Part shown: positions 3,502 to 28,956 of the stretch, in pieces
Layout of the letters: the number at the start of each line of letters is the position of its first letter
Position numbering within the stretch: position 1 is the first letter of the stretch
From: a bacterium
GTDB taxonomy: Bacteria > Fidelibacterota > Marinisomatia > Marinisomatales > UBA1611
Direction of reading: 5' to 3'
DNA: 29,010 nt
Assembly: GCA_038127595.1 (NCBI GenBank)
Contig: JAYPIC010000017.1
Span: forward strand, 1 to 29,010
Notes under the pieces: model-generated
Databases searched by the model: none
What the model saw: only the letters and a program-made list of their open reading frames with translations
Told to the model about the DNA's origin: nothing
Program-made: the position numbers and the translations under genes

Positions 3502-4077
3502 ATGGCAATAAAAAACAGTTTATTCATAATAATAGTCATTCAATTTTTTAATTGTGCTGGAACAAACTATAAAAAACTCAGCATTGAAAACCCCGCCAAA
3601 CTAGTAGCAGTTCAAGACTCTCTTCTTTTAGTTAGTGGCGACAATCAACGCATTAGAGATGCGTTGGTTACTGCAAATAATAGTGTTGCAAAAGGATATT
3701 TAAATGCCGGCGATTTAAAATCGGCTGCTCAATACTTTAATAAATCAACTTCTATAGATGGCGATAATAAGGACTCTAAATTCGGGCTTTTGATTGCCGA
3801 GGGGAGAATATTAATTAAAAAAGGCAATAAAAATGGAATATGGGATGCGATTGAAAAGTTTTCTAGAGCATCATCTCTATTCCCAAGAAATGGTGAGCCA
3901 TTTTACTGGATGGCTAAATCTTATACAAAGTTAGGCGATACAGAATTTGATTTAATTCTTGAATCATATGAAAAATCTTTAGCGCTAGATTTAGATGAAG
4001 GTTTACGATTAGAAGTTGAAAAAAACTATAAAATAGCTAAAAATCGAAAAAGTAAATTAGATTCTTTTTGGAAATAA
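3502..4077 (+). CDS. TPR-repeat protein, probable lipoprotein
   Basis: Basic N-terminus, hydrophobic stretch and FFNC-A lipobox-like Cys; TPR-like helices (AAQYFNKSTSIDGDN, AIEKFSRASSLFPRNGEPFYWMAKSY, YEKSLALD). SD-like GGAAGG upstream. Confidence 0.7.
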   Translation: MAIKNSLFIIIVIQFFNCAGTNYKKLSIENPAKLVAVQDSLLLVSGDNQRIRDALVTANNSVAKGYLNAGDLKSAAQYFNKSTSIDGDNKDSKFGLLIAEGRILIKKGNKNGIWDAIEKFSRASSLFPRNGEPFYWMAKSYTKLGDTEFDLILESYEKSLALDLDEGLRLEVEKNYKIAKNRKSKLDSFWK

Positions 4078-4213: not shown

Positions 4214-5368
4214 ATGAGATCACAATTGAGCTTTATTAGGCGAGTTGTATGCTCGCTGTATGTTCTGTTGCTTTTTGGGCACTCAGTGTCATTTGCTGCA
4301 GAAAAATATGACTTAAAAGGTACTGTTAGAGGTATAGATGATAAGGTAACTGTTGAACTTGCTGGTACTAAAAAAGATGACAAAACCAATAGAGATGGTG
4401 AGTTTAAGTTAAACAATGTTTTGGAAGGCGAATATACTTTACAGGTCATTGCTGACAAAAAAGTAATTCATGAACAATCTATTAAAGTAGATAGTGACAA
4501 TGATAATTTAGAAATTAACGTTGGCTCTTCATCTGCTATAGTTGATAAGACGATCATTTCTGCTGCAGCCACAAGTTCTGTTAGTCAAGAAGTTTCTTCA
4601 GTACCTGTTCCCCAAACAGCAGAAGCTAGCGGAGGAGCATCTAATGATTTTATTTTAAATGAACTTAATTTTGAAATAAAAAAACTAACAGCAGAGTTCA
4701 AGCATCTAAGTAGAGAAATGGATGATCTTAAAGCTTTAAGTAAAATGTGGATCAATCCATTAACTATTTATTCGAAAGAAATAATTTTAAAAAATGGTAG
4801 TACAGTTTTTGGGAAAATTGTATATCAAGATGATAAATCCCTAAAAGTTGAGACCTTGGTTGGTTATTTAATAATAAAGAGAGATGAGGTAGTTCGAATT
4901 GTTGATAATGTTATAACCGAAGATCAGCAAGAATATGTTCCAGAGCAAATTAGAGAAAGTTATGCTCCACCTCCTATGCCCAAATTGACTGTTCCTAAGT
5001 ACACATCTTCAAGTGTCTCTAATAGAGATGCTGGTGAAAAGTTCTCAGCCAATTGCGTTTTAATGGGTAACATATCAGAAAAAAAGGATACACAAGGGAA
5101 TGTTGTTTTTAATGGTGAAATTAAAAACATAGGTGGTAGAAGAGCAGATTTTGTAAAAATGGATTTTGTATTTAGAAAAAATTGGAGCGGAGAAACCCGC
5201 ACATTGACAACATTCATACAAGGTTCTTACAATACTTTCGATAGTGGAATTGTTTCTGATGCTAGCCTGTTGCCAGGAGCTCTAGGGAAGTTCGAATTGT
5301 ATGTTCCTCAAGACTTTGGGTCTTTCATTGGTTATTCCTATGTAATTGATTGGGAAGAGTATCAGTAG
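4214..5368 (+). CDS. Exported multidomain protein: carboxypeptidase-regulatory-like beta-sandwich, coiled coil, small beta domain, C-terminal Ig/FxLYD-like domain
   Basis: Signal peptide ending SFA-AE; LKGTV...TNRDGEFKLNNVLEGEYTLQV (prealbumin-like fold); heptads LNELNFEIKKLTAEFKHLSREMDDLKAL; IILKNGSTVFGKIV; VVFNGEIKNIGG...LLPGALGKFEL. Confidence 0.6.
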   Translation: MRSQLSFIRRVVCSLYVLLLFGHSVSFAAEKYDLKGTVRGIDDKVTVELAGTKKDDKTNRDGEFKLNNVLEGEYTLQVIADKKVIHEQSIKVDSDNDNLEINVGSSSAIVDKTIISAAATSSVSQEVSSVPVPQTAEASGGASNDFILNELNFEIKKLTAEFKHLSREMDDLKALSKMWINPLTIYSKEIILKNGSTVFGKIVYQDDKSLKVETLVGYLIIKRDEVVRIVDNVITEDQQEYVPEQIRESYAPPPMPKLTVPKYTSSSVSNRDAGEKFSANCVLMGNISEKKDTQGNVVFNGEIKNIGGRRADFVKMDFVFRKNWSGETRTLTTFIQGSYNTFDSGIVSDASLLPGALGKFELYVPQDFGSFIGYSYVIDWEEYQ

Positions 5369-5378
5369 AAAATATTTT

Positions 5379-6260
5379 ATGATAATAAAATTACTATATA
5401 TCATTTCAGTATCTCTTGCTTCATATGTCTTCGGCCAAGATGTAGACGAGAATACTTTTCTACCTGATATGGGAGTAGTTATTCAGTCTGCGGATAAGTC
5501 TAGCAAACCAGAGCCTCCATTAGAAAAAAACCGTGTAGTAAAGTTGAACAATATGACTGATAAAAAAGAATCTAATTTTGTTTTTAAAGCTAAAGCATCT
5601 GATATGATTTCATCCATTGATAGAATTACTAGCCATGTTAGCAATCTAGAAAAAGATTATCAGTCCAAGATAGAACAGTTAGAAGCAGAAAATTCCAATT
5701 TAAGAAATCAAATTATCAGTTTAAACCATAGACTTAATTCAGAAATATTAAATGTTAGTTCAACCGAAGTTGAATCAGTCAAGCCAGAAATTGAAGTGTC
5801 TCTTCCACTAGAAATATCATCCGCTGACAACGGTATTGTTGAAGAAGTTGATCCTCAGACAGAAAATATTAGTCATAAAATAAAACTTAAAGATTTTGAT
5901 GAAGATCTCTATATAGAAGGTGTTATACATTATAATAATGAAAAGTTTGATGAGTGTATTGAAAATTTAGGAGTACTTCCTTTTGAAAAAGGTGAGCCTA
6001 GAAATGCTACAAAAGGATTATTTCTGCTTGCTGATTCTTATGAAAAAATTGGAAGGTACAAGCAGGCTTTGCTTTGTTTAGAAAAATTAACATCGTTTAA
6101 TGACCCTCTCTATTCTGAATTAGTTCTTTTTAAAAAAGGAATAATTTATAGAGATATTGGTATGAGGGATAAGGCTCAGAAAGTGTTTCAAACATTAGTT
6201 AACTTTTACCCTGATAGTGAGTATAAAGCATTTGCTGAACAGGAAATACAAAACATATAG
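5379..6260 (+). CDS. Exported coiled-coil + TPR protein, CpoB/YbgF-like architecture
   Basis: ATG 5379 preferred over TTG 5346 because it puts a signal peptide (MIIKLLYIISVSLASYVFG-Q) at the N-terminus. Coiled coil IEQLEAENSNLRNQIISL; three C-terminal TPRs ending AQKVFQTLVNFYPDSEYKAFAEQ. Confidence 0.7.
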   Translation: MIIKLLYIISVSLASYVFGQDVDENTFLPDMGVVIQSADKSSKPEPPLEKNRVVKLNNMTDKKESNFVFKAKASDMISSIDRITSHVSNLEKDYQSKIEQLEAENSNLRNQIISLNHRLNSEILNVSSTEVESVKPEIEVSLPLEISSADNGIVEEVDPQTENISHKIKLKDFDEDLYIEGVIHYNNEKFDECIENLGVLPFEKGEPRNATKGLFLLADSYEKIGRYKQALLCLEKLTSFNDPLYSELVLFKKGIIYRDIGMRDKAQKVFQTLVNFYPDSEYKAFAEQEIQNI

Positions 6261-6267
6261 CATTTAA

Positions 6268-7647
6268 ATGAATAGCAAAAAAAATATATTATTTATACTT
6301 ATATTTTTGTCAAGTATGATTTTTGCATCTGCTCGAGTTGCTTACACTCGCCCTGGTTTAATGATGAGAATTCCAACATCTAGCGTTGAAAAAGCTCCTT
6401 ATATTTTTAGGACTGGCTTTGGGGTAGAGCTCCACAATTTTGACCCCATCAACACAGCTAAAGGTGTTTACTTTGATATGGAATTTGCAAAAGGATTTTC
6501 TGCAGGATTTTCTGCTGTACAAGGGGGAGATACGACAGCTTTAAATTTGATTTCTGAATCTCAATATTCTCCACAAGTAGAATTTGGGTTTCATTTTCAA
6601 CAAAGAATTTTTGTTTATAATGATATTTCTCTTTCAGCAGGTTTGCAAGATATTGTCTTCCAAAACAACCAAGACGACGAACAAGTTTTAAGTTTAAATA
6701 CTGACCTTTTATCTTTTTTTCTAGTGCTTGCTAGTGAGAAAGATTTAGGTGATTATAAGATGAGCACTTTCATGGGTTTCGGTACTGGAGGCCTAGGCCC
6801 GATGGATAGTGTCAAAGTAATAAGTGATTCAGCACAAACGGCAAATGCGGGTGTCTTTGTTGGATTCTTATTGAAAACGCCCTACTTCGGTAGAACTGGT
6901 GGAATGGATATTGTGGGTGAATTCGATGGAACAGGTGTCAATGTGGGACTCCGCATCCCCCTTACCTCGGATTACCGCCTGAACCTTGGGTTCGCCCACA
7001 TAGAGCGTTTACCTAGCTGGAAGACTCGCTATTGGACTGGTCATCCAGCATTTACTGTGGGTTTTGATATGGCAGTACCAAGAGTAGGTGGCGCGTTGCG
7101 ATCCACTTCTAGTGGTCCATCTAATCAGCCTTTGCCGTTAGGTAATGCGTTTCGTTCTGAAAGCGGCTCTATCCCTGCTTATATGGATTCTACGATTGCG
7201 ATGGCTGATTTTACCGTATTGTCGCTAAGAGACTCTATGTCCATGATGAATAATGAAATGCGAAATTTGATGGTACAATTATCTGCTTTGGAGCAAGAAT
7301 CACAATTTCTTGTGGATTCATTGAAACAGCTAAAACTCAGTAAAAATGTCCAAGAAAAAAATATGAATGAGGCTATGAGACACTTATCAAGAAGCCTTAG
7401 ATATTTTTACGCAGGTGATTTTCGTGAGGCACTAAAGGAAGTTGATTTATCATTGGAACTGAAACCTGATTTAGCTTTAGCTTACGCAAGGCGTGGTTCT
7501 ATATATTATAAGTTAGGTGATGTTCAAAGAGCCACGATAAATTGGAATCTCGCACTTAGGTTAGATCCTGAGTATGATGATGTCAGGAATATTTTAAAGG
7601 CGCTTCATGAGAATCGTCTTAAAGAAGCTAATTTGTTTGAGGAGTAA
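6268..7647 (+). CDS. Exported protein: putative outer-membrane beta-barrel (YjbH-like) N-domain, coiled coil, C-terminal TPRs
   Basis: Signal peptide; amphipathic Gly/aromatic strands (VEFGFHFQQ, GVFVGFLL, IVGEFDGTGVNVGLRIPLTSDYRLNLGF, FTVGFDM); coiled coil MNNEMRNLMVQLSALEQESQFLVDSLKQL; clear TPRs LALAYARRGSIYYKLGDVQRATINWNLALRLDPE. Confidence 0.6.
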   Translation: MNSKKNILFILIFLSSMIFASARVAYTRPGLMMRIPTSSVEKAPYIFRTGFGVELHNFDPINTAKGVYFDMEFAKGFSAGFSAVQGGDTTALNLISESQYSPQVEFGFHFQQRIFVYNDISLSAGLQDIVFQNNQDDEQVLSLNTDLLSFFLVLASEKDLGDYKMSTFMGFGTGGLGPMDSVKVISDSAQTANAGVFVGFLLKTPYFGRTGGMDIVGEFDGTGVNVGLRIPLTSDYRLNLGFAHIERLPSWKTRYWTGHPAFTVGFDMAVPRVGGALRSTSSGPSNQPLPLGNAFRSESGSIPAYMDSTIAMADFTVLSLRDSMSMMNNEMRNLMVQLSALEQESQFLVDSLKQLKLSKNVQEKNMNEAMRHLSRSLRYFYAGDFREALKEVDLSLELKPDLALAYARRGSIYYKLGDVQRATINWNLALRLDPEYDDVRNILKALHENRLKEANLFEE

Positions 7648-7650
7648 AAC

Positions 7651-8439
7651 ATGGATATTGCTTTAATTATAGGAGTTATATTTGGTTTTGTTTGTATGAT
7701 AGGTAGTATTGCTTATGCTCTTTTTGTTGAGGGTTCAGCAGGGGGATTTGGTAACTTTCTATCTGCGCCAAGTTTTGGAATTGTATTTGGAGGTATGATT
7801 GCGTCTATATTTGTGGCATTCCCAATGCCTCATGTTGTCGCTCTAGGAAAAGCTATCGGTGCGGTGCTAAAGCCTGCAGATGATAAAATGGGGCCACTTG
7901 TAGATGAAGCTGTTGAAGTAGCTGAAGTTGGTAGAAAAGGTGCAGCTGACCTTGAAAAATCTGTTGATGGTATAAAAAATTACTTTTTTAAGGATGGTGT
8001 TCAGATGGTTGTAGATGGCTATTCTTTAGACGAAATAACTGAAATCATGGAAACTAGAATTGAATATAGAGAAAAAAGAGAAAACGTTCAGAAATCAATG
8101 TTAAAGTCAATGGGTGATTTAGCTCCAGCATGGGGTATGGTAGGTACTCTTATTGGTCTTGTACTTATGTTAGCTGGTTTTGGGGGTGAAGGAGGAGCAG
8201 ACAACTTAGGTGGTGGTATGGCTGCAGCTCTAATTACCACTCTTTATGGTGCTGTTTTTGCAAATTTATTTTTTCTACCAATGGCAGATAAGATGGGCAA
8301 TAAAACTACTCAAACATCGATGTCAGCAGCGTTATTAGTAGAAGCTGCTAGGTTAATCCATCAGAAAAAGCATCCTTTAATTGTTCGTGAAAAATTAAAT
8401 TCATTCATACCTCCTGGAGAGTGGAAAACAGAGGGCTAA
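7651..8439 (+). CDS. motA: Flagellar-type stator A subunit (MotA/PomA family)
   Basis: Four TM segments; MD...IG N-terminus, F.S.PSFGIVFGG, RKG...LE, FFKDGVQMVVDG, APAWGMVGTLIGLVLML, MAAALITTLYGAVFANLFFLP and HPLIVREKLNSF. Confidence 0.93.
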   Translation: MDIALIIGVIFGFVCMIGSIAYALFVEGSAGGFGNFLSAPSFGIVFGGMIASIFVAFPMPHVVALGKAIGAVLKPADDKMGPLVDEAVEVAEVGRKGAADLEKSVDGIKNYFFKDGVQMVVDGYSLDEITEIMETRIEYREKRENVQKSMLKSMGDLAPAWGMVGTLIGLVLMLAGFGGEGGADNLGGGMAAALITTLYGAVFANLFFLPMADKMGNKTTQTSMSAALLVEAARLIHQKKHPLIVREKLNSFIPPGEWKTEG

Positions 8440-8448
8440 GGTTTTCTT

Positions 8449-9330
8449 ATGGCTGGCGCAGAATTTAAAAACGGATACAAAAAAGGTTTTGAAGATGGGG
8501 CTAACTCTGTTGAAGAGGGGCTTCCTGGATGGTTCGGAACTTTTGCAGACATGATGACATTATTATTTGCATTTTTTGTATTACTTGCTGCTATATCCAC
8601 TATGGATCCTGTAAAACTTCAAGAAATGGCAAATTCTGAGGGCAAGTCACTAGGGAGCAAAATCAAAGCCAGCGGAAAAGCTGAAGAAGAAGGTGAGTTT
8701 GAACCAATTAAAAATTTGGCTGAAATGAAAAAAGAGATGGAAGAAACTATCGAGGAGATGAAGAAAGAGAATCCAAAAGGTGACCCTCCAATCGATATTC
8801 AAACTAGCTCAAAAGGTCTAATAGTAAATATCAAAGGCGATTATGCTTTTCCTATTGGTAAAGCCTCTATGAAAGAAGAGTTAAAAGGACTTTTAGATGA
8901 AGAAATTATACCAAAAATTCAATTAAGCCCTTTTCAAGTAGAGGTAGCCGGTCATTCTGATTCAGATAAAATGCCAAAAAAATGGAGAAAGAACTTTGCT
9001 ACTAACTGGGAACTTTCTGCTGCAAGAGGTGCTAGTGTGGTTCGTTATATGATTGACAAGGGAGTACCCGCACCACGATTATTGGCTGCAGGTTATGGTC
9101 CTTGGGCTCCTCATGGACTTGATAGTGTAAAAAAGCAAAACCCAATGTGGAATCCTTTAACATTAACTTGGAAAGACCCTGTTAAGACTGCAGACGGGAA
9201 AGAAATGCCAACTGTTTTAAGTCTAAATAAAAACGAAAAAATGAAATCTAAAAACAGAAGAATTCAAATTACTTTTTTAAATCCGCCACATCATGGTAAG
9301 GGGCGGTCAGCAACAAGCTATGAAGATTAA
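8449..9330 (+). CDS. motB: Flagellar-type stator B subunit (MotB/PomB family) with OmpA-like peptidoglycan-binding domain
   Basis: WFGTFADMMTLLFAFFVLL (conserved Asp34), plug helix DPVKLQEMANS, VEVAGHSD, NWELSAARG, GYG and NRRIQI. Confidence 0.93.
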   Translation: MAGAEFKNGYKKGFEDGANSVEEGLPGWFGTFADMMTLLFAFFVLLAAISTMDPVKLQEMANSEGKSLGSKIKASGKAEEEGEFEPIKNLAEMKKEMEETIEEMKKENPKGDPPIDIQTSSKGLIVNIKGDYAFPIGKASMKEELKGLLDEEIIPKIQLSPFQVEVAGHSDSDKMPKKWRKNFATNWELSAARGASVVRYMIDKGVPAPRLLAAGYGPWAPHGLDSVKKQNPMWNPLTLTWKDPVKTADGKEMPTVLSLNKNEKMKSKNRRIQITFLNPPHHGKGRSATSYED

Positions 9331-9351: not shown

Positions 9352-11205
9352 ATGATAAAAATAGTTTCAAATATTAAAAAAAGATTAGCGGTTTTCTTAC
9401 TGTCTGCTCTTTTAATAGGCCAAGGGTCTGGCTACCTAGCACAAAAGCTTATGGTAGAAAATAATATAAGAGAAAGAATTAAAGACGCTCTTTCTAAGAT
9501 TATTGACAGTAATAAATATGTTATTAACGTTGATATTGATCTAGATATTAGTGATGAAGTGGAAGAGCAAATCACAGTTTTGTCAGAAAAAAATTCAAAC
9601 CAGTCTGCTAATGATATGCCTGAAGAAAAGAACACTGTAGAAGAATCTTTATCAAGTATTCAGCAATCAATAGAATCAGAAGAAGAATCTAGCCAGTCTG
9701 GTTACTCTGTTGGGTTACCTATTCCTGGGTTTGAAATGGATTTTACGAATTCAAATAAAGCTTCAAAAAAAGCCGAAGAACCAAAGCCTCCAGTAATGTC
9801 AGTTGAAACAAAGAAACCAATTGAAGTTACTGATAAGAGTAGTAGTTCTAATGAACCTCGGGTTGACAAAATTTTGTCTAGGACAAGACCATCTAGAGCT
9901 GAAGTAAAAAAGATGTATATTAGTTTAATTTTACAAGAGGGAGCTGCTCCAGAGCTTATCGAAAATATCAGACAATTAACTATGGCCGCTGCAAAATTTG
10001 ATAGAAACCGTGGTGATAAGCTAACTATCATGACTGCTAGTTTTAGAGAAAGAAGAGATCAGCGCTCAGCTGAACAGATCATGCTGAAAAACATAGCAGA
10101 AAAAATTGAACTTCTTGAGCAAAAAAGAGAAATTGAAGAAAATACCCAAGATGCTACCTGGAAAGATGAATTAACTAGATATAGAGAAGAAGAGGCGGCT
10201 AGAAGAGAGGATGATAGAAAGTTTTTTGAGGGACAAATTTCACAATTAGAACAGCAAGCCAAAGATCGCGCTTATGCTCAAGAGAAAAAGGACATGCTTT
10301 TAAGAGACTCTTTAAAGCTAAAAAAATTAAATGATGAAATTGTTGCTTTGAAATCAATGCTTAAGAGCGCCGAAAAACGTGATAGTTTAAAAACCGTTAG
10401 CAAGCAAGAACGTATAGATTCTTTAAGGTATGTTAGCCTTAGTACTGAGCTTGATGAGTTAGCAAAATCACTTCAAACTGCAGTTGTTTCAAAATCTAAA
10501 GATGAAGAAGTGAAGGCAAAGCGTAAAATTCAAGCTGAAATGGCTGAGAGAGAAAAACAGAAAGAAAAAAGAGAACAAGAAATTGCTGACAAGATTCGTG
10601 AACTTGATAGCGTTCAAGAAGAGCTAGATAAGTTGCATCAAGATATGGAAAAAGAAAGTGGAAATACTTTCATCATCTTAATTGTTCTTGGTGCTTTGGT
10701 ATTTATTTTGATAGCAGCTTTAATATTTGTTTTGTTAAGAAATAATAGCAGGCAAGCACCTGTTCCTCCTTGGATGATGCCTCCACCACCGCGTAGACCA
10801 AGAAGGAAAAGAAGAGAGGCACCAAATAAAGAGAAAGAGTCTAAACAAAATTCAAAAACTGAAGAACCAGCATCAAAGTCTCAGTCTGAGGAGCCTGTAG
10901 TTACGCCACCTGCACCTCAGCCTGAGCAGTCCGCTGATCAAGAAGTAACAGGCGCTAATAAAGAAGAATCGCAGCCTGAAAGTTCCTTGCCACCATCGAG
11001 TGATAATGATCCAGATGTGGTCAGGAGTGAAATAAATGATATACGCAAATCCGTTGTCTCTATGAGTGTAGGTCAACCGGATAGGACTACCACAATAGTA
11101 AAAGAATGGTTAGAACAACCAGAACCTACACCGCCAGCTGAACCTGAGCAAGAGGCACCTGCTGCTGATGCAGATAGCGATGGTTCTGAAGAGAAAGAAA
11201 AGTAA
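9352..11205 (+). CDS. Atypical FliF-like M-ring protein (RBM3/beta-collar only, long coiled coil, TM helix, FliG-binding tail)
   Basis: VENNIRERIKDALSKIIDSNKYVINVDIDLD, LPIPG, VDKILSRT...VKKMYISLIL and IENIRQLTMAAAKFDRNRGDKLTIMTASF match the FliF C-terminal RBM3 pattern. TM at aa ~440-462. C-terminal VVSMSVGQPDRTTTIVKEWL matches the FliF P-x7-W-L tail. Directly upstream of fliG; GAGGAG RBS. Confidence 0.78.
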   Translation: MIKIVSNIKKRLAVFLLSALLIGQGSGYLAQKLMVENNIRERIKDALSKIIDSNKYVINVDIDLDISDEVEEQITVLSEKNSNQSANDMPEEKNTVEESLSSIQQSIESEEESSQSGYSVGLPIPGFEMDFTNSNKASKKAEEPKPPVMSVETKKPIEVTDKSSSSNEPRVDKILSRTRPSRAEVKKMYISLILQEGAAPELIENIRQLTMAAAKFDRNRGDKLTIMTASFRERRDQRSAEQIMLKNIAEKIELLEQKREIEENTQDATWKDELTRYREEEAARREDDRKFFEGQISQLEQQAKDRAYAQEKKDMLLRDSLKLKKLNDEIVALKSMLKSAEKRDSLKTVSKQERIDSLRYVSLSTELDELAKSLQTAVVSKSKDEEVKAKRKIQAEMAEREKQKEKREQEIADKIRELDSVQEELDKLHQDMEKESGNTFIILIVLGALVFILIAALIFVLLRNNSRQAPVPPWMMPPPPRRPRRKRREAPNKEKESKQNSKTEEPASKSQSEEPVVTPPAPQPEQSADQEVTGANKEESQPESSLPPSSDNDPDVVRSEINDIRKSVVSMSVGQPDRTTTIVKEWLEQPEPTPPAEPEQEAPAADADSDGSEEKEK

Positions 11206-11222: not shown

Positions 11223-12167
11223 ATGATAACAGATTATAATCGCCTATCGGGGCTTCATAAAGTTGCAATTCTTTTTTCAGTGCTAGGTGAAAGCCTTGCT
11301 ATGTCGCTTATTAAGGGTTTATCTCGTACTGAGGTAAGAAAAATAAGAGCTACTATTCGAGAAATGGATAGCGTTTCGTTTACGCTGAAAAGACGAATAA
11401 TGGAAGAATTCTATTTTGGTTTTTTAAGTGAACAATTTTCTGAAGAAGGTGGAGATGATGAGGATGAAGGACCCATCAAGCCATTTGAGTTTTTAACTGA
11501 AATGACTGATGAGCAGCTCGTTGCACTTCTTGCAAATGAAGATGTCCCAGTAATTGCTATAGCATTAGCTCAGCTAGACTCATCCAAAAGAATGTCCATA
11601 CTAGAACGTATGAAACCTGAAGAAAAAGGGAAAGTATTAATTGAACTTGGTAGTTTGCAGGATGTTCCTTTAGAAGCGATAGTAGAGGTTGCGGGTAAAT
11701 TAAAAGAAAAAGCATCTTACTTACCCAAGCCAGTTGAGTTTTCTAGGGGCGGAGCCAAAGAGATAGCTGACTTAATTGGAGAGATGAGTGCAGATGAAGC
11801 TGAAAGATATATGCAAACTCTTCAAAATGAAAATCCTGAACTATATAAAGATGTTAAAATGTTAGTTCTAACTTTTGAGGATATTTTGGCTAATTTCCCA
11901 GATGGAATTCTAAGAGATCTTTGTAATAGTGTTGAGCTTGATGCATTAGCAATGGCCTTGAAGGGAATTGAACAAGAAACTGTCGACAGAGTTATTGGTA
12001 ATTTACCTCAGAAAAAACAAGCTATGTTTGAGCCCGTTGAAGGTCCAAAACCCAAGAGGGAGGTTGATGATGCTAGAAAAATCATTGTCACTGCGGCTAA
12101 AGCAATGGAAAAAGAAGGTGCTTTTAATTTAGCAGATATGATGGGTGGTGGAGAAATGATTGAATAA
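11223..12167 (+). CDS. fliG: FliG-like rotor protein
   Basis: LSGLHKVAILFSVLGE (FliG-N), PFEFL, GG linker (SRGGAKEIADLI), ENPEL...TFEDI, LAMALKG, GP...EVDDARKIIV and EGAF; AGGAGG RBS. Confidence 0.9.
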   Translation: MITDYNRLSGLHKVAILFSVLGESLAMSLIKGLSRTEVRKIRATIREMDSVSFTLKRRIMEEFYFGFLSEQFSEEGGDDEDEGPIKPFEFLTEMTDEQLVALLANEDVPVIAIALAQLDSSKRMSILERMKPEEKGKVLIELGSLQDVPLEAIVEVAGKLKEKASYLPKPVEFSRGGAKEIADLIGEMSADEAERYMQTLQNENPELYKDVKMLVLTFEDILANFPDGILRDLCNSVELDALAMALKGIEQETVDRVIGNLPQKKQAMFEPVEGPKPKREVDDARKIIVTAAKAMEKEGAFNLADMMGGGEMIE

Positions 12168-19273: not shown

Positions 19274-19927
19274 ATGAAATTTAAACGATATAATTACAAG
19301 AAAAAAAATGACCAAGAAATACTTGAGCATTCTCACAATTTTATGCAGCTAATGTTAAACAGGAGGAGTATCAGAGATTTTTCATCTAAGAAAGTTTCAG
19401 ATAAAGTAATCGAAAATATTTTAAAAACTGCAATAAGCTCCCCATCTGGAGCGAATAAACAGCCTTGGAGTTTTGTGGTTGTAAAAAGTAAAGTTTTAAA
19501 AAAGAAAATTAGAATTGCAGCAGAGCAAGAAGAAAAAAAATTCTATGAGCAAAGAGCAACTGACGAATGGCTAGATGATTTAAATAAATTCGGAACATGT
19601 TGGGAAAAGCCGTTTCTTGAAGAGGCACCTGCATTGATCATCATCTTCAGACAATCTTATGACAATAGTGGGAGCAAGAAAAGAAAAAACTATTATGTTA
19701 ATGAGTCTGTTGGTATTGCATCTGGTTTTCTACTTACCGCGATTCAAAATGCTGGATTGGTTTGTTTAACCCATACCCCTAGTCCTATGGGGTTTCTCGA
19801 GCAGATATTAGAAAGGCCTAAAAATGAAAAAGCATATTTACTTATACCTATAGGTTTTCCTAAAAAAGATGCTCAGGTCCCGGTTTTAGATAAAAAACCA
19901 TATAATGAATCCGTGGAAGTGTTTTGA
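19274..19927 (+). CDS. Nitroreductase-superfamily protein, iodotyrosine deiodinase (IYD)-like
   Basis: ATG 19274 preferred over TTG 19163. RRSIRDFS, SPSGANKQPW, IRIAAEQEEKKFY, W..DL..FGT.WEKPFLEEAP, YYVNESVGIA and LTHTPSPM. Confidence 0.85.
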   Translation: MKFKRYNYKKKNDQEILEHSHNFMQLMLNRRSIRDFSSKKVSDKVIENILKTAISSPSGANKQPWSFVVVKSKVLKKKIRIAAEQEEKKFYEQRATDEWLDDLNKFGTCWEKPFLEEAPALIIIFRQSYDNSGSKKRKNYYVNESVGIASGFLLTAIQNAGLVCLTHTPSPMGFLEQILERPKNEKAYLLIPIGFPKKDAQVPVLDKKPYNESVEVF

Positions 19928-19928
19928 G

Positions 19929-20414
19929 ATGATAAAAATATTTGTAACTGGAGGGACTTTTGACAAAGACTATGATGAAAAAAATGGAAGGCTTTACTTC
20001 AAAAAAACTCATATGAATGAGATTTTAGCATTAGGTAGATCTAAGGTCGAGGTAAATATTGAGACGCTTATGATGCTTGATAGCTTAGATATAAAAAAAA
20101 AAGATAGAGAACTAATCGTCAAAAAATGTACTGCCGCTATTGAGCATCATATTGTAATTACTCATGGCACAGATACAATGGTCGACACAGCAAGAGCTAT
20201 TGGTGACAAACACCTTGAAAAAACAATTGTATTAACAGGTGCAATGATACCATATAAGTTTGGCACCTCAGATGGTCTATTTAACATTGCTAGCGCTCTA
20301 GCTTATGTTCAGACACTGCCGCATGGTGTGTACATTGCGATGAATGGTAGGGTGTTTTTACATAACAAAGTAATAAAAAATAGAGCAACAGGAATTTTTG
20401 AGGAAATAAAATGA
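19929..20414 (+). CDS. Short-chain L-asparaginase-like protein (catalytic N-domain only)
   Basis: ATG 19929 sits 1 nt after the upstream stop. TGGTFDK, DSL, ITHGTDTM, IVLTGAMIP and GVYIAMNG. Confidence 0.85.
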   Translation: MIKIFVTGGTFDKDYDEKNGRLYFKKTHMNEILALGRSKVEVNIETLMMLDSLDIKKKDRELIVKKCTAAIEHHIVITHGTDTMVDTARAIGDKHLEKTIVLTGAMIPYKFGTSDGLFNIASALAYVQTLPHGVYIAMNGRVFLHNKVIKNRATGIFEEIK

Positions 20415-21001: not shown

Positions 21002-23989
21002 ATGGGAAAAATCTCAAAATTAGTCGCTCTCACTTTGTTAATGTCATTTGCGTTATCGCAAACGACAGGTAAAATAAGGGGAACAGTAACCTCAGCAGAT
21101 GGGCAACCACTTGCTGGTGCTAACGTCATTGTTGATGGTACAACAAAAGGTGCCGCTACTGACGGTGAAGGTAATTATACAATATTAAATGTTGAAGCTG
21201 GTTCGTATAGCGTTACTGCATCATACATTGGATATCAAAGCAGTACAGAATCTAATGTATCAGTTAAGGTTGACCTTACTACTCCGCTGAGTTTTGCAAT
21301 GCAGACATCAGCTGTTGAAGGTGAAGCTGTTACAATTGTTGGTGAGAAAAGACTCATTGAGAAAAGTGCTACAAACTCTGTTAGATCTGTAAGTTCTGAA
21401 GAAATTCAAAACTCTGCTTCAAGAAGTGTTTCTGGCATGCTTGATATGCAGGCTGGTGTTAATATTACAAACGGTAGACTCTCTATTCGTGGTAGTAGAG
21501 CAGAAGAGGTTGCTTACACTCTTGATGGAGCATCAATTACTGACGTGGTAAATACTGGTAGAGATGTATCTGCTATTCCTGAAGCTCTTGCAGAGATTTC
21601 TGTTGAGTCTGGAGGATTCGGTGCTCATATTGGTGGTGCTAACTCAGGTGTTGTTAGACAGACATTAAGAACTGGTGGTAACGAAGTGGCGGGGACTGTT
21701 CGTTTTGAAACTGGTGATTATGGCCATACTGATCTAACTGCAACAGTAGGAGTTCCTATTGGAGATAAGGTTAAAACTTTTATTGCGCTTCGCAGTAATC
21801 ATGTTGATGATTGGAATCCAACATACTACACAGATTTTAAAATTAATGATGGTCAGCCTCTAGAAAGTACAGTCTCTGGTAGCACTCCTGATGGTGAAAC
21901 AGTAGTGGTTGATTTTAAATCAGGCGGTAAAGATGGCGTTGCTCATAGAGCTCAAGATATTTTACAAATCAATGCTACTGGAACAGTCGATCTAGGGCCA
22001 TTAAACTTGCGTCTATCCGCAGTAGTTGATAACAATACTTATGAAAGTAATAGTCTACCAATATACTATATGCACAATACAGAGAGGCTACCTAAGACAG
22101 AAAGAAAACTTTCTATGTATAACGCTAGGGCAAACTACTTTTTAAATCCAAATATGCTTTTATCCGCAGGGTTAAGCACATTTAAGCGCACATATGAAAA
22201 ATATGATGATGCTATGGGTAAGCCAGATGGATTTGGAGATCTACTTGGTTGGTATGATTCAACTTCAGTTGCTGCAGCTGGTGTAGATGCTTCTTGGTGG
22301 GCAGGTGGAAACACTAATTTTTCTGTACCAGGAGCTACATACATTTCCCCAGCACCTTATTACGTAGCTAACACATTTGCTTTTTCCAGACCAGGTGATA
22401 TTGCTACTGACTATGATAAGAATGAGCGTTCTTCTTTCGGTTTTGATGCTGGGTTAACCTGGCAAAGAGGTGATCATGAAATCCGCGCAGGGTTTGATTA
22501 TAAGAAATATACTTACCGTGTTTATGAATTAAGTACAACTGCAATGTACAATATCAATAAAGCGATTGCTGATGGTGATTACACGAGAGAAGAGGCTGTT
22601 AGCGGTGATAATGCTCAAGTAACATCTGATCTATCACTATATAATAGAGATGGTCAGATAGGCTATGATGATTATGGTAATGAGATTAATGATGGTTTTG
22701 ATGGTCCTCGTGAGCCAACAGTAACATCTTTCTATGTTAATGACAAATACGAAGCTGGAGATTTAGTATTAAGTGCAGGTGTTCGTATTGATAATTTTAT
22801 GATGGACGATTTTAAAATGAAAGATCCTGCTAATCCAGGTTGGGATCAATCAAATCAAGGTATAATAGCAGATGAGTTCGAAGAGTCTGAAACAAAAAGT
22901 GTGCTTCAACCACGTCTTGGTCTTGCTTTCCCTGTTTCTGATCAAATGGTCTTTCATTTACAGTATGGTAAATTCGCTCAAATGCCAGAACTTGATCTGC
23001 CATATGCATCTACTCGCTATATGCATTTAGTTTGGGGTGGTCAGAACTATACTCCTGATCCAATGGGTTTTGACCTTGATCCAATTGAGACTACTCAATA
23101 TGAAGTAGGTATGAGTTATCAGTTCTTGCCTTCTGCTGCGATTGACGTAACAGCCTTTGCTAAAAATACTACTGGTCAGGTGGTTGTTGGTAAAAATGAG
23201 GCAGTTGACATTTCAAACACATATGGTGTAGCTCAAGATGCTTTCTATTACAAGAATGGTGATTTTACTACGGTGAATGGTTTTGAGTTCACTCTTAGAA
23301 CTCGTAGAGTTAGCAGATTACAAACATTTGCTTCTTACACATGGTCAGATGCGAGAGGAATTAATTCAGATCCTAACACAGGAGCTGGTAATATTGCTCA
23401 GGATCTGTTGAGCCCACCGCCATTAATGATTTCACCACTTTATTATCATAATAAGCATCGTGGCGCGATAGCATTAGATTATCGTTATGGTTCGGATGAT
23501 GGCCTACTAAGTGGTCTTGGTTTTAATTTTGAATATAAATTCAACAGTGGTCATCCGTATACATTGAGCGATGGTGGCATGGGTCAGCGTGCAGCTGATG
23601 AAGGAGCAATTCTTGCAGATGCTCGTTCTCGTGAACCACAAGAGTCAATTGGCGGATCTACTACTCCATGGCAGTACTACGCTAATTTGAAAGTTGATTA
23701 CAAGTTATCACTAGGTGGAGTCGGCGTTACTCTTTTCGCCTATATAGATAATCTGTTTGATACAAAAAATGTTATCAATGTTTACTCAAGATCAGGTAAT
23801 GCTTATGATGATGGATTTTTAACAGATCCAGCATTAAGCTCTGAGATAGTAGCAGCGAATGGTCAGACTTATGTTGATCTTTATCGCAACGTTAATCTAG
23901 AAAATAGGCAGCATTATATGAACGATTTTGGATTAGATGTTTTTGCTACTCCACAAATTGTGAAAATGGGTGTTTCCGTTAATTTCTAA
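21002..23989 (+). CDS. TonB-dependent outer membrane receptor with N-terminal carboxypeptidase-regulatory-like domain
   Basis: Signal peptide; GKIRGTV..ADGQPLAGANV..DGT.KGAATDGEGNYTI; plug IRGSRAEEVAYTLDG; barrel LSAGVRID, QPRLGLAFP and NLFD; C-terminal Phe (GVSVNF); GGAGG RBS. Confidence 0.93.
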   Translation: MGKISKLVALTLLMSFALSQTTGKIRGTVTSADGQPLAGANVIVDGTTKGAATDGEGNYTILNVEAGSYSVTASYIGYQSSTESNVSVKVDLTTPLSFAMQTSAVEGEAVTIVGEKRLIEKSATNSVRSVSSEEIQNSASRSVSGMLDMQAGVNITNGRLSIRGSRAEEVAYTLDGASITDVVNTGRDVSAIPEALAEISVESGGFGAHIGGANSGVVRQTLRTGGNEVAGTVRFETGDYGHTDLTATVGVPIGDKVKTFIALRSNHVDDWNPTYYTDFKINDGQPLESTVSGSTPDGETVVVDFKSGGKDGVAHRAQDILQINATGTVDLGPLNLRLSAVVDNNTYESNSLPIYYMHNTERLPKTERKLSMYNARANYFLNPNMLLSAGLSTFKRTYEKYDDAMGKPDGFGDLLGWYDSTSVAAAGVDASWWAGGNTNFSVPGATYISPAPYYVANTFAFSRPGDIATDYDKNERSSFGFDAGLTWQRGDHEIRAGFDYKKYTYRVYELSTTAMYNINKAIADGDYTREEAVSGDNAQVTSDLSLYNRDGQIGYDDYGNEINDGFDGPREPTVTSFYVNDKYEAGDLVLSAGVRIDNFMMDDFKMKDPANPGWDQSNQGIIADEFEESETKSVLQPRLGLAFPVSDQMVFHLQYGKFAQMPELDLPYASTRYMHLVWGGQNYTPDPMGFDLDPIETTQYEVGMSYQFLPSAAIDVTAFAKNTTGQVVVGKNEAVDISNTYGVAQDAFYYKNGDFTTVNGFEFTLRTRRVSRLQTFASYTWSDARGINSDPNTGAGNIAQDLLSPPPLMISPLYYHNKHRGAIALDYRYGSDDGLLSGLGFNFEYKFNSGHPYTLSDGGMGQRAADEGAILADARSREPQESIGGSTTPWQYYANLKVDYKLSLGGVGVTLFAYIDNLFDTKNVINVYSRSGNAYDDGFLTDPALSSEIVAANGQTYVDLYRNVNLENRQHYMNDFGLDVFATPQIVKMGVSVNF

Positions 23990-24043
23990 TTCTGATCATT
24001 TAATAGAATGATAACAAAAAATAAAAAAGAGGGTATAAAAACC

Positions 24044-27000
24044 ATGAAAATAAAGAATATTAAATTAATAGCAGCTGCGAGTATCATTCTTGTTTCTAGC
24101 TTGTTCTCAAAGGAACTAGCATCAACAAGTGTAAGCTCAAAAGCTACGCAAAGAGTGCTCAATGGTGAAAATCAATCACCTGGCATATCTGTACTTAACA
24201 TTAACAATATAGCATACTGGATTGGAAAAGATGGTGCATATACAACTGCGGGTAGTCCTAATGGTACTATGGCAGATTATCCTATCTTCACAGGAGGATT
24301 CATTTATTCTGATGGTATGTTATGGGGTGCTAAAGTTAAAGGAGATGGGCAAGGTGATGAAGTAAGAGTAGGTGGATCAACATATTATCATGGTTTAAAG
24401 GCAGGTAGAATAATAACAGATGCTGAAGGTAATGTGCTTGGTTCAGATGACCCAGTTAATAACCACGTATGGAGAGTTAGAAAAGACTGGGCAACTGCAG
24501 ACTTAACAGTTGATGCAGCAAATTATTATGCAGTTGGAACTGGTGATGTTTCAGCGGCTCAAATCTCAGTTGTTAAAAACCAATATGAATATGATTGGTA
24601 TAACTGGCCTGCAGCATGGGGTGCTCCTTACCATGATGTAAATGGTGATGGTAGTTATGATCCTGCTGTTGATGTCCCTGGATATCCTGGTGCTGATCAA
24701 ACAATGTGGACTATTGCTAATGATGTTCCACTTATTGTAGATGCTGCGGGAGATAGTATTGGTTATAGTAACACTGCTCCAAGTTTATATGGTGCAGATC
24801 CAATTGGTATTGAACTTCAAATTACTTTGTGGGGTTATGCTTTTGGTGCTAGTGACCCATTAGGTAATAATATTTTCAAGCAGGCAAAAATGAAGTATAT
24901 GGGTCTTCCAGGTACTCCTGATGGAGCGATGCTTGACTCCCTTTATTTTACGCAGTGGTCAGATCCTGACTTGGGTACATATACGGATGATTATGTAGGT
25001 TGCGATATCGATCTCTCTTTTGGATATGTATATAATGGTAATAGGTTAGATGGTGTTTTTAATGGAATTTTTAATTTACCTGTTCCAGCTGGTGGTTATG
25101 ATTTCTTGCAAGGTCCTCCAGATAACATGGATATAGATGGTGATGGTGATACAGAAGAATACCTAGGTATGACCTCATTTACATACTTCGGAGCTGGTTC
25201 TGCTATCTCTGATCCGGATCTATCATCTTACTCTGGTTCATTGCAGTTTTTTAATTTAATGGAAGGGTTTTTACCAAGACCCGAATATCCACAACAAATT
25301 CCTTTTACAGATCCTTCAACAGGTCTAGAAACAAAGTATGCTCTATCTGGTGATCCAACAAGTGGTTCAGGATGGATTGATGGTGTTCAGCTTCCACCTG
25401 GTGATAGAAGAATGGTTATGGCAAGTGGTCCATTTAGATTGAACTTAGGCGAGGAAGCAGATGTTGTATTTGGAATTGCTGGAGGAATGGGATTAGATAA
25501 TGTCTCTTCTGTTTCTGTAGCAAAATTCCATGATCTTTATGGTCAATATGCTTATGATCAAGAGTTTAATCTACCAAGTGCTCCATCTTCTCCAACAGTT
25601 CATGGAATTGAAATGGATGGATCAATTGGTCTTGATTGGGGCTCTGATGAGAACTCGGTTTCGGCAACAGAAGAAACTGTTAGCGCTGGGTTTGAATTTG
25701 AAGGTTATGTTGTTTATCAGCTACCATCTGCAAGCTCGCCATTGAGTGAGGCAGTTAAGGTTGCTACTTATGATAAAGTGAACTTAATCCAAAATATATT
25801 AGACCCATCTATTGATCCAATAACTGGTTTAGTTGTAGATGCAGCTAAGCAAACGGGTACAGATGCTGGCGTACAACGTTATTTTTCAACTGATTATGAT
25901 GAAGTAAGAGGGCGTCCAATGTCGAATGGTATTACTTACCATTTTGCTGTAACTGCTTACAGTTATTTAGCAGATAATGAAGGCAGTCCTTTTAAAACAT
26001 TAGAATCTGGAGAAACAAGAATTGCTGTTACTCCTAGATCTTTAAATCCTGGAGAAACAGTTCATAGTGAAATGAGCTCAGCAATCGACATTACTCATAA
26101 TGGAACTGCTAATGCCACAATCAATGTTAGTGTTATTAATCCTTATGAGTTAAAAGATGAGAGCTATAAAGTTACTTTTGATACTCAAGAGTATTATAGA
26201 GATCTTGATGGTACATGGAAAAAAGTTGTAGCTGGAAGAGCTGCTGGTAAAGCCTCAGATTGTACTGGTTCAACAGTAGCAGCTGCAGCAGTTGCTAGTG
26301 CTACCGTTGGAACTATTGATCTTGTATTAACTTTTACTATGAATTGTGGTAGTAACTGGGTTGATGGAATTGATTTTACATTCCCTGCAGATATGGGAAC
26401 AATAAATAGCTGGGAGGTAATTGGCCCAGGGAATTTATGTTCATATGGAACTGGTTCTGGTCAAAATTGTAATAATCTAGATGGTACTTTAGATGGTAAT
26501 ACTTTGCTGTTCGGTACTGTTAATACAGGTGGAGGTTTTGGTGCTTTTGAAAGTAGTAACACTTTTAAAATTAATTACACACCAGGTTCTGGCGGATACC
26601 CATATGATGTTGGCTTTACTGTTTATGATGATGCTTATGATGGCACGGAGGTAAATGCTGTAGGTACCGCAACAGTTGCAGAGCTGGGTTATGAAACAAA
26701 AACAGAGTATCATTGGAACCTTTCTACCGCAGGTGGTACAGTTCTGCTAGAAGACCAAACTTTCATTGGTGGAGCAGATTTATATGGAGGAGCTAGTGTT
26801 GATAATAATTCTAGCCTACACTATAATTCTGCAGCTGCAGTTACTGTTGATGGATTTCACTTAAATGTAGATGGTGGATATGATTCTCCTGTTGATTATT
26901 TTGAATCTGTTATAACTCCTGACGCTGCTAATGCAGCACTTTACGGAGAGTCTAGCTATGATTTAGGTTCCTATATCAGATATGGTTGGGCGTTAACATC

Positions 27001-27904: not shown

Positions 27905-27927
27905 TCACCATATAAACGGAGATAAAA

Positions 27928-28956
27928 ATGAAAAAACATATTATTACAAGTTTAGTAATTATAGCAATTAGCTCTCTAGTTGTTGCTCAGAGTTCTAGAA
28001 TGGGTTCTGCATCATCAACACAGCTGCTCGTAGTTCCTAGTGCTAAGCACCTTTCAGGTGGTGGTGCTGCTGCTACAGCAACAGGGATGGATGCTACATT
28101 TTGGAATCCTGCTGGATTGGCAATGAGTGAAAATAGTATTGATGCAATTTTCTCAAATCGTCAGTATTTCGCAGATATTGATAACAGCTTCTTTGGGGTT
28201 GCAACAGATATTGGTGAATATAAAATGGGTGTTACTGTAAGGACATTTAACATCGGTGATATAAATGAAACCACTGTTTATTTTCCGGATGGAACTGGTC
28301 AGGTATTTACGCCTAACTTTTCTATCCTAGGTGGAAGTATTGCTAAAAAGCTATCTGACAATACTAGCGTTGGCATGAACGTAAACTACGTTAGAGAAGG
28401 ATTTGGTAGAGTTTCTGCTTCTGGCGTTGCTTACGACTTAGGCGTTCAATACAAAGGACTACTTGGTAGAGAAAATTTAGATGTTGGATTTGCTCTTAAA
28501 AACTTTGGTAGCCCAGTCAAGTATGATGGTCCAGGCTTAGGTGTGTTTGCTGAACCTTCAGATGCTGATAGACCTTCAGAGTATTATAAAATTGATGCTG
28601 CTGCTTTTGATTTGCCTTTTACATTTGATATGGCTATTTCATATAATATTGCAGGAGCTGATCTAGGTGCGACTTACACTAGTAATTATTATTCTACAGA
28701 TGAGTTAAAGCTTAGTGTCGGATACAAAATTGAAGGGCTTGGCTCTGTAGGTGTTGGAATTCAAACCTCTGGAGCTGCTCAAGAGATTGAAGATGCTGAT
28801 GGTGATTGGTATACAAATCCATCAGATGGTGTATCTTTTGGCGCTTCCGTTGACCTATCTAGATATGTTGGAACTAATCTTAGTGTAGATTATTCTATGC
28901 TTCCAATGGGTGACTTTGGAACGAATTCTGTAGTTGCTTTGAGATTAGCATTTTAA
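27928..28956 (+). CDS. PorV/PorQ-family (FadL-like) outer membrane beta-barrel
   Basis: Signal peptide; LLVVPSAKHLSGGGA..A..GMDATFWNPAGLA hatch motif; AYDLGVQY, GFALKNFG, DLP and VDYS; C-terminal Phe. Confidence 0.85.
   Translation: MKKHIITSLVIIAISSLVVAQSSRMGSASSTQLLVVPSAKHLSGGGAAATATGMDATFWNPAGLAMSENSIDAIFSNRQYFADIDNSFFGVATDIGEYKMGVTVRTFNIGDINETTVYFPDGTGQVFTPNFSILGGSIAKKLSDNTSVGMNVNYVREGFGRVSASGVAYDLGVQYKGLLGRENLDVGFALKNFGSPVKYDGPGLGVFAEPSDADRPSEYYKIDAAAFDLPFTFDMAISYNIAGADLGATYTSNYYSTDELKLSVGYKIEGLGSVGVGIQTSGAAQEIEDADGDWYTNPSDGVSFGASVDLSRYVGTNLSVDYSMLPMGDFGTNSVVALRLAF

Follow-up and report, generated by a model that had tools for sequence, protein, structure and literature searches.

The FliF-like protein: ring domain, anchor and topology

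The subject of this work is a FliF-like protein encoded in a stretch of 29,010 nucleotides (positions 1 to 29,010 of contig JAYPIC010000017.1, assembly GCA_038127595.1; the whole of this stretch is hereafter the window) from a bacterium of the Fidelibacterota (Marinisomatia; Marinisomatales; UBA1611). The window has a low GC content (33–40%), and the list of its open reading frames (ORFs) with their translations gives a product of 617 residues for the ORF at 9352..11205 on the forward (+) strand, on which every feature of this gene and of its operon lies. From N- to C-terminus, the protein comprises a probable signal peptide, an RBM3 ring-building domain, a helical stalk, a single transmembrane (TM) helix and a cytoplasmic tail, with a match to the Pfam family PF08345. 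We put at about even chances the proposal that a periplasmic stalk of ~205 residues joins an RBM3 ring to the TM helix and a FliG-binding tail, with the ring kept at a lineage-specific height.

The ring domain (residues 24–231; 9421..10044) is of the RBM3 or S-ring type. PF08345 (YscJ_FliF_C, that is RBM3) matches residues 47–231 with an E-value of 1e-9 and 39.5 bits against a cut-off of 23.8, and with an E-value of 9e-11 when the domain is scanned alone. The top 18 matches of a Foldseek search of the PDB are all FliF chains of the membrane–supramembrane (MS) ring (8z5v_A: E 2.4e-7, TM-score to target 0.61). Likewise, VIA-align, run against 48,161 chains, superposes residues 22..231 of the model on residues 228..437 of Salmonella FliF (6scn_A, Z 15.7 over 123 residues) and gives Z 15.6 for the ring domain on 8z5v_A. 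The model in question, made with AlphaFold2 (AF2) from an alignment of 37 sequences, has a mean predicted local distance difference test score (pLDDT) of 69.6 and a predicted template modelling score (pTM) of 0.33; in its N-terminal part it shows helices at 2–23 and 26–47, strands at 56–66, 70–76, 173–179 and 183–195, a helix at 200–214 and a strand at 223–229. No match to PF01514 (RBM1/RBM2) was found in the protein at E<=0.01, and no NCBIfam FliF family matched it at E<=0.001. Since PF01514 is missing from the rest of the genome as well, the ring part of this protein is RBM3 only. At the position of the FliF collar, RBM3 accommodates an acidic and Ser-rich insert of low complexity (residues 77–172; 9580..9867), which in four segments falls below a pLDDT of 50 over most of residues 80–170 and carries a conserved G-L-P-I-P-G-F-E motif. 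P123 is nearly invariant in the family, and P123, P125 and G126 are invariant in an alignment of 14 sequences.

The only strongly hydrophobic segment of the protein is the TM helix at residues 440–462 (10669..10737; Kyte–Doolittle (KD) hydrophobicity up to 3.42; AF2 helix 437–464), the equivalent of the second TM helix (TM2) of FliF. It is followed by a tail (residues 463–617; 10738..11202) in which a Pro/Arg/Lys-rich linker precedes two helices (554–588, modelled as 554–574 and 576–588) that bear the FliF-type C-terminal motif. This tail holds 26 prolines, is of low pLDDT and has a nearly invariant W586; in its pattern, the motif resembles the C-terminal ends of canonical FliFs from this phylum, at a BLASTP E-value over the motif (1.3) that is not significant. 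The residues following the TM helix are strongly basic (RNNSRQ...RRPRRKRR) and those preceding it acidic. Because of this basic flank, the FliF-like helices and motif at the C-terminus and the adjacent fliG gene, residues 24–439 are assigned to the periplasm and the tail to the cytoplasm. A first-pass annotation of this DNA had taken the helical region to be periplasmic and had named a cytoplasmic placement as one of the findings that would overturn its model; the charges flanking the TM helix point to the periplasm.

The N-terminal segment (residues 1–23; 9352..9420) is suggestive of a signal peptide that is cleaved before the near-invariant Q24. Its hydrophobicity is weak, peaking at KD 1.69 over residues 12–30, as against 2.6–3.2 for the first TM helix (TM1) of five canonical FliFs of the phylum. 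Across the family alignment the hydrophobic stretch has a median of 14 uncharged residues and ends with a small residue and the glutamine (a G/A/S-Q motif), which lies a constant seven residues ahead of the conserved Q-K-L-M-x-E with which the first RBM3 helix opens. Of 126 family members surveyed, 122 have this anchor motif and 94 pass a filter for Q after at least eight uncharged residues; of these, 90 carry G/A/S at position −1 and 90 carry L/G/I/V/A/S at position −3. In most members failing the filter a small residue still precedes Q, and in two the Q is replaced by E. The genome at large displays a comparable tendency: among 341 signal-like N-termini that lack a later TM segment, 85 (25%) have Q directly after the uncharged leader, compared with 9% of 1932 internal stretches and a share of Q among all residues of 2.9%, and 66 of the 85 carry S/A/G at position −1. 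This pattern of a small residue followed by Q resembles the 'Q-rule' of Bacteroidetes. If the segment is cleaved, the mature protein would be anchored by the TM helix of residues 440–462 alone and RBM3 would form its free N-terminal end; only with such cleavage could the ring be lifted off the inner membrane.

The stalk: composition and lineage-specific length

The stalk (residues 232–439; 10045..10668) lies between these two landmarks. The first-pass annotation had singled out 10069–10737, corresponding to residues 240–462 and hence to the helical stretch plus the TM helix, as a proline-free region rich in E, K, R, Q and L between RBM3 and the membrane, and the composition, the AF2 model and Pfam all bear this out. 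There is no proline from P200 to P470, a run of 269 residues with a chance of ~1e-7 at the protein's own proline frequency (36/617); residues 240–435 are 65% E/K/R/Q/D/L and 47% charged and include one glycine; and the stalk matches no Pfam family at E<=1. AF2 models helices at 237–346 (pLDDT ~85–95) and 360–435 (66–91), separated by a low-confidence break or hinge at residues 347–359 (10390..10428; pLDDT 49–56). An alpha-helix rises by ~0.15 nm per residue, and the stalk would measure ~29–31 nm when fully helical, in agreement with the ~29 nm given earlier for it.

Conservation within the stalk is concentrated in two blocks: residues 233–257, where A240, E241, L245, I248 and A249, all within the first ~25 residues, are invariant in the 14-row alignment, and residues 320–338, which hold the central motif D-S-L...L...I..L-K. 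Hydrophobic residues make up 24% of the whole. Two stretches, 253–301 and 379–427, are of an ER/K-like character (50–64% charged, 14–21% hydrophobic, 0.14–0.21 opposite-charge pairs at i/i+4 per residue), the other parts are 29–36% hydrophobic, and the stretch 316–385 is the more amphipathic. These properties show a stalk that is best described as long, charged, alpha-helical and partly heptad-patterned. A two-copy prediction for residues 232–466 returned a score of 0.00, which gives no answer and is uninformative either way. As a separate matter, an internal duplication as the origin of the ~42 extra residues of this clade (319–341 against 355–377) was considered and rejected (local score 32, shuffle p 0.20).

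In homologues, we took the stalk to run from the invariant F that closes RBM3 up to where the TM helix begins. It spans 45–208 residues, with a median of 163, in 37 full-length representatives. Among 68 complete ORFs from named Marinimicrobia loci (one further ORF lacking the ring-end motif was left out), the distribution is bimodal: 38 have stalks of 151–169 residues (standard deviation (SD) 2.9), 30 have stalks of 199–210 residues (SD 3.2), and none falls between 170 and 198. Within the two classes the identity of the stalk drops as low as 30% and 36%, and its length barely shifts. The flanks are more variable in three of the four comparisons (N-terminal part SD 10.1 and 3.4; C-terminal tail SD 5.7 and 9.8), with the N-terminal part of the long class about matching its stalk. 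All 30 stalks of the long class are free of proline. In other families, 18 measurable loci (two more have no recognisable ring-end motif) fall at 44–47 residues (3), 119–132 (5), 144 (1), 161 (1), 173–179 (3) and 192–210 (5). Stalk length has thus been kept nearly constant inside lineages, with jumps from one to another, and it is under selection.

A conserved motor operon in a genome without other flagellar genes

The gene for the FliF-like protein is the penultimate member of a cluster on one strand, encoding in order a TPR protein, a CarboxypepD_reg-like protein, a coiled-coil/TPR protein, a barrel–TPR protein, MotA, MotB, the FliF-like protein and FliG. We searched for this locus elsewhere with the 14 closer alignment rows as query and kept 80 loci, scoring the presence of each neighbour by tblastn at E<1e-5, with misses mostly at contig ends; the neighbours keep the same order and strand. 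The downstream OPT and PurM genes accompany the cluster in only 1/80 loci. This operon of TPR proteins, MotA, MotB, FliF-like protein and FliG is conserved across Marinimicrobia/SAR406, and in a further 20 loci from other families, the CarboxypepD_reg-like, barrel–TPR, MotA, MotB, FliF-like and FliG genes are present in 20/20.

The motor components are the most uniform part of this set. FliG (11223..12167), with its N, M and C domains (PF14842, PF14841 and PF01706), starts 18 bases downstream of the FliF-like gene and adjoins it in 79/80 loci; its FliG_C domain is the one such match in the genome, making this its only FliG. The stator A subunit (7651..8439; 71/80 loci) is of the MotA/PomA type (PF01618, E 2.6e-27; the NCBIfam MotP/PomA match is below its cut-off), and the MotB-type B subunit (8449..9330; 76/80 loci) has the plug and an OmpA-like peptidoglycan-binding domain (PF13677, PF00691).

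Immediately upstream of these, the ORF at 6268..7647 (70/80 loci) encodes a protein of 459 residues, for which the AF2 model (35 sequences; mean pLDDT 81.8) predicts an outer-membrane beta-barrel of 12 strands (residues 45–271), a disordered linker, a periplasmic helix of 77 residues (306–382) and a TPR domain. VIA-align places the barrel on the porin KdgM (4pr7_A, Z 17.5, root-mean-square deviation (rmsd) 2.2 Å over 164 residues) and on NanC (Z 16.1), and the C-terminal end on TPR domains (Z ~14). The operon is thus predicted to encode an outer-membrane protein with an arm into the periplasm, and the outer-membrane partner that the first-pass annotation had invoked for the stalk has a concrete candidate in it. 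A small TPR protein (3502..4077; TPR_2; 48/80 loci) is a probable lipoprotein, with Cys18 after a hydrophobic leader. The product of 4214..5368 (57/80 and 20/20 loci) is a secreted protein with a CarboxypepD_reg-like beta-sandwich (PF13715, below its cut-off), a Ser-rich linker and a short coiled segment. That of 5346..6260 (37/80 and 19/20 loci) is a periplasmic coiled-coil and TPR protein (TPR_2, TPR_6) of CpoB/YbgF-like layout, with sub-threshold matches to YbgF, BamD and TolA_bind_tri; it is listed with a TTG start, and an ATG ten codons in (5376), opening a signal-like leader that ends in G-Q, is the likely true start.

Contigs from four metatranscriptome libraries, belonging to four studies and at least 95% identical, cover the operon. 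Pieces spanning 9886–10820 and 9748–10422 reach the part coding for the stalk, and the summed depth falls in the last bin after fliG. This coverage is consistent with transcription of the operon and is no proof of it, as carry-over of DNA is possible.

Of 7999 candidates scored in a word-indexed search for the FliF-like protein, 1844 reached E<=0.001. The 120 matches listed are all of 617 residues and 98–100% identical; such a number of near-identical matches indicates an organism that is abundant in metagenomes. An exhaustive search of representatives at 50% identity recovered 208 proteins at E<=0.001, 136 at <=1e-10 and 40 at <=1e-30, and 165 of 226 candidate stretches in GTDB species genomes encode a relative. 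The 80 loci are mostly labelled Marinimicrobia, Neomarinimicrobiota or Fidelibacterota, and the nearest clusters in the protein atlas are likewise mostly from Fidelibacterota, labelled 'hypothetical protein' or 'Flagellar M-ring protein C-terminal domain-containing protein'. One locus (L080), in a bin labelled SAR86 cluster, carries a partial FliF-like gene of 76% identity on a 4-kb contig, probably a binning error. In four genomes (G045, G117, G105 and G110), the FliF-like match has one in-frame stop (TAG in three, TGA in one), which could reflect a pseudogene, a sequencing error or recoding.

The genome to which the window belongs (2.0 Mb, 95.8% complete) yielded no match to FlhA, a rod domain, flagellin, RBM1/2 (PF01514) or a FliM/N domain in searches that were positive in four flagellated control genomes; in this respect the missing rod of the first-pass annotation is corroborated. 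Across 201 genomes of the phylum, the FliF-like gene occurs in 132 and FlhA, above its cut-off, in 48, with 32 genomes having both, 100 the FliF-like gene only, 16 FlhA only and 53 neither. From this cross-table it follows that the module does not depend on the flagellum and that the two can occur together. The published account of the cultured relative Fidelibacter multiformis records it as non-motile and diderm (PMC11652737).

We also considered whether the motor stands in for GldLM in type IX secretion. SprA_N is found in 197/201 genomes, including 13/13 genomes of one family (f3) without the FliF-like gene, leaving an obligatory link unsupported. The GldM model matched 0/201 genomes, and GldL/GldM gave 0 matches in the genome of the window, zeros that are uninformative as these models matched no control genome. 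About 9 kb downstream and outside the conserved operon, the window holds (21002–28956) an N-terminal match to SusC/RagA-like proteins (995 residues), a protein of 1298 residues with a C-terminal sorting domain of the type IX secretion system and a PorV/PorQ-family protein. Elsewhere, an ORF of 169 residues at 19905–20414 aligns with type I/II asparaginases over their N-terminal half only and is possibly a truncated gene.

Stalk geometry and the output of the motor

The lengths of its two parts bear on the path that the stalk takes through the periplasm. When it is split at the end of the central D-S-L motif, which is present in 101 of 123 sequences, the first segment, from the ring end to the motif, measures ~69–72 residues in the 130-residue class and 103–106 in the 160-residue class, and reaches 121 in a 178-residue member and 149 in a 210-residue member of another family, and the second, from the motif to the TM helix, stays at 57–63 residues in those classes. 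In the clade of the present gene, the two measure ~102 and 99–106 residues. A folded stalk with parts of 149 and 61 residues cannot have its two ends at the membrane, which favours an extended stalk. Hence, we regard an extended stalk that positions the ring as the best reading. In the alternative path, the N-terminal segment serves as a TM1 and the ring rests on the inner membrane, with the 208 residues folded into an antiparallel hairpin that builds a cage or collar above it. This arrangement would accord with the two TM helices of canonical FliF, with the bend near mid-stalk in the AF2 monomer and with the near-equal halves in this clade. However, a zipped hairpin needs paired changes in length, and the halves are unequal and change independently in other clades (69:60, 103:58 and 149:61). 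Moreover, the N-terminal segment is far less hydrophobic than a canonical TM1, ends in a site like that of signal peptidase, with a small residue and then Q, and in the AF2 model is joined to the first RBM3 helix by few or no residues. We therefore hold the fold-back unlikely.

The following sequence of events would then be compatible with an extended stalk. Upon cleavage before Q24, the TM helix would remain as the sole anchor and the ring domain would come to lie at the far end of the stalk. The subunits would oligomerise into a ring through RBM3, as predicted from homology with FliF, and the TM helices and tails would carry a ring of FliG driven by MotA/MotB stators anchored to the peptidoglycan. 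The palisade of stalks would link this inner-membrane rotor to the periplasmic ring, at a height of up to ~30 nm in this clade. At ~30 nm, the ring could meet the helix–TPR arm of the barrel protein as well as the operon's other TPR proteins; the ring, or the disordered acidic insert with its P-I-P-G-F-E motif, is a plausible TPR ligand, and the insert in particular could be a peptide ligand of the TPR domains of the operon.

Several observations weigh against an extended stalk that sets the height of the ring. On the side of the N-terminus, our signal-peptide test is a heuristic count of leaders and glutamines, and the near-invariant Q could be a structural residue and not a cleavage site. 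The 'Q-rule' of Bacteroidetes is reported not to be valid across the whole Fibrobacteres–Chlorobi–Bacteroidetes (FCB) group (PMC5837995). On the side of the stalk itself, the AF2 monomer is bent or folded back near residues 347–359, at low confidence (pTM 0.33). The AlphaFold check proposed earlier thus upholds the long helices (237–346 and 360–435) but not one straight rod. VIA-align superposes the modelled helix of residues 233–351 on straight coiled-coil helices with an rmsd of 2–6 Å over 100–120 residues (Z ~7.3), which is unremarkable for a long helix; over residues 232–469 it gives an rmsd of 80–105 Å to straight helices and 15 Å to a folded cohesin elbow. The contact between the two stalk helices of the model is judged indirectly, from these VIA alignments. 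A 3.5-residue hydrophobic periodicity is present to a modest degree (p 0.0135 in a test with 2000 shuffles), with several shifts of the best heptad register along the stalk; the coiled coil of the first-pass annotation accordingly holds as a partial heptad pattern, with the register shifts and the two E/R/K-rich stretches speaking against a sustained one. As to the bend, Pro or Gly occurs within 12 residues after the central motif in 38/42 members of the 141–190-residue class and in 4/42 of the long class. Many relatives are likely to have a hinge; in this protein it is doubtful, and the predicted break at residues 347–359 may have been inherited from the alignment.

Other points against this proposal concern the surroundings of the ring. 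A ring above the peptidoglycan would require a very large hole in that layer. Across families sharing the operon, the stalk varies from 44 to 210 residues, up to 4.7-fold, and the periplasmic arm of the barrel–TPR protein, from the end of the barrel to the start of the TPR domain, is 114–128 residues in all 49 measurable homologues, whatever the length of the stalk. Within the order of the window, long stalks go with MotB proteins of 276–314 residues (outlier 263) and short ones with 243–268 residues (three outliers, 147–224), a difference of ~30–35 residues in favour of the long-stalk clade. In other families, stalks of 203–210 residues go with MotB proteins of 213–226 residues and stalks of 44 residues with 236–240. 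Naive correlations between the lengths of stalk and partners (rho ~0.5) reflect clade structure. Given the constant arm and the lack of any general co-variation, the stalk does not measure a fixed distance to a fixed partner, and we rejected a ruler that co-varies with its partners, since the relation to MotB is lost in other families and the arm is constant. The idea of a conserved, ruler-like length raised in the first-pass annotation therefore stands within clades (SD ~3 residues) and fails between families that share the same operon.

The same data bear on whether the stalks carry movement. The first-pass annotation had pictured a built-in driveshaft, in which the palisade of stalks transmits the continuous rotation of MotAB/FliG across the periplasm to outer-membrane partners and thereby replaces the rod. 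A complete stator–rotor set in a genome lacking rod and export apparatus, a stalk that in this clade would reach ~30 nm if fully helical, the probable loss of the N-terminal anchor and the presence in the operon of the predicted outer-membrane barrel–helix–TPR protein and two more TPR proteins would all suit such a device. Against it, the operon and the arm of the outer-membrane partner are unchanged in families with stalks of 44–47 or 119–132 residues, the stalk possibly has a hinge, and ~30 separate helices would be torsionally soft and unable to rotate through the peptidoglycan. As the stalk varies and the arm is constant, reaching the outer membrane is no conserved requirement, and a full driveshaft to that membrane cannot be universal; we consider it improbable. 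The lifting of the ring off the inner membrane has the evidence for N-terminal cleavage in its favour; a conserved reach to the outer membrane is contradicted by stalks of 44–210 residues facing a constant arm. The barrel protein has a ~30-residue disordered linker that would make contact between its TPR arm and the ring geometrically possible for short and long stalks alike. We see a small chance for a related version, in which the stalks form a rotating cage that carries the torque of MotAB/FliG to a periplasmic ring engaging the arm of the barrel protein, amounting to a trans-envelope rotary machine free of both rod and export. A static spacer or scaffold, that is, a non-turning periplasmic platform like the accessory disks of flagella or a bridge of the Tol–Pal type for which the stalk sets the distance, would fit the CpoB/YbgF-like and BamD-like TPR proteins of the operon, the fixed lengths of each clade, which are typical of spacers, and the lack of FliM/N switch proteins. 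Yet, the retention of a three-domain FliG and of MotA/MotB with plug and peptidoglycan anchor in nearly every locus is hard to explain without torque at FliG, and we consider this reading very improbable.

With the FliFs of Salmonella and Vibrio (PDB 6scn, 6sd1, 7d84 and 8z5v), the protein shares the RBM3 fold including the position of the collar insert, a TM helix after the periplasmic part, a similar cytoplasmic C-terminal motif and an adjacent fliG. Unlike them, it lacks RBM1/RBM2, its N-terminal TM helix is probably replaced by a cleaved signal peptide, the beta-collar gives way to a low-complexity acidic insert, 208 residues occupy the position of a linker of ~20, and its genome is without export gate, rod, hook and filament. 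In five flagellated genomes of the phylum, the canonical FliF has 528–543 residues, with TM1 at about residue 21 and TM2, in the four of five where the scan found one, at residues 412–428; for one of the five (L103), RBM3 would end near residue 395 according to a weak alignment, leaving a linker of ~22 residues, in keeping with the short linker that the first-pass annotation had ascribed to canonical FliF. BLASTP against these FliFs gave a best E-value of 0.43, which is not significant, pointing to the FliF-like protein and canonical FliF as old paralogues.

By VIA-align, the fold of the ring-building motif is also shared with SpoIIIAG (5wc3_A, Z 7.5), SpoIIIAH (3uz0_C, Z 7.5) and the SctJ/SctD (PrgK/PrgH, CdsD) proteins (needle complex 2y9j_Y, Z 8.0; CdsD 4qo6_A, Z 7.2), with scores far below that of FliF; none of these has a FliG-binding tail, a MotAB partner or a long helical stalk. 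In GldM/PorM, TolA, TonB and the tail of ZorA, a long helical element carries the output of a motor of the MotA/ExbB family over tens of nanometres, and the shaft is part of, or lies inside, the stator-like 5:2 unit; here, in contrast, it belongs to a rotor ring of the FliF/FliG type that is pushed from outside by stators. No similarity in sequence or fold to these proteins was seen, with no search directed at them. PflA/PflB of Campylobacter and Helicobacter and FlcA of spirochaetes are periplasmic TPR proteins that act on the MotAB stators of a complete flagellum, unlike the TPR proteins of this operon, which include a fusion to an outer-membrane barrel and accompany a rotor without a rod. 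In a paper on the evolution of MotAB, a term search found one passage on FliG and no match for FliF, Marinimicrobia or TPR (PMC12505986). Full-text literature searches, paper supplements not covered, found no published description of the operon or of the protein.

The picture that emerges is of a FliF relative that has lost the parts that hold the export gate and the rod, has kept the ring domain, the FliG tail and MotAB, and has gained a long stalk. This suggests a motor that is derived from the flagellum. The flagellar rotor is not known to pass torque outward by any route other than the rod assembled inside the MS ring; if the ring of the FliF-like protein sits at the end of its stalk, the torque generator of the flagellum can be coupled to a different output. 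For the evolution of motors this would mean a stand-alone rotor–stator module, either one that predates the flagellum or one that derives from it. The discrete classes of stalks (~45, 130, 160, 175 and 200 residues) constitute a natural experiment, in which the height of the ring should follow the length of the stalk. If the stalks do form a rotating cage, it might move or remodel components of the outer membrane, with the stalk tuned to the envelope of each lineage. The SAR406/Marinimicrobia rank among the most abundant bacteria of the dark ocean and are almost uncultured, and the proposal, if true, would give them an uncharacterised, energy-consuming machine of the cell envelope.

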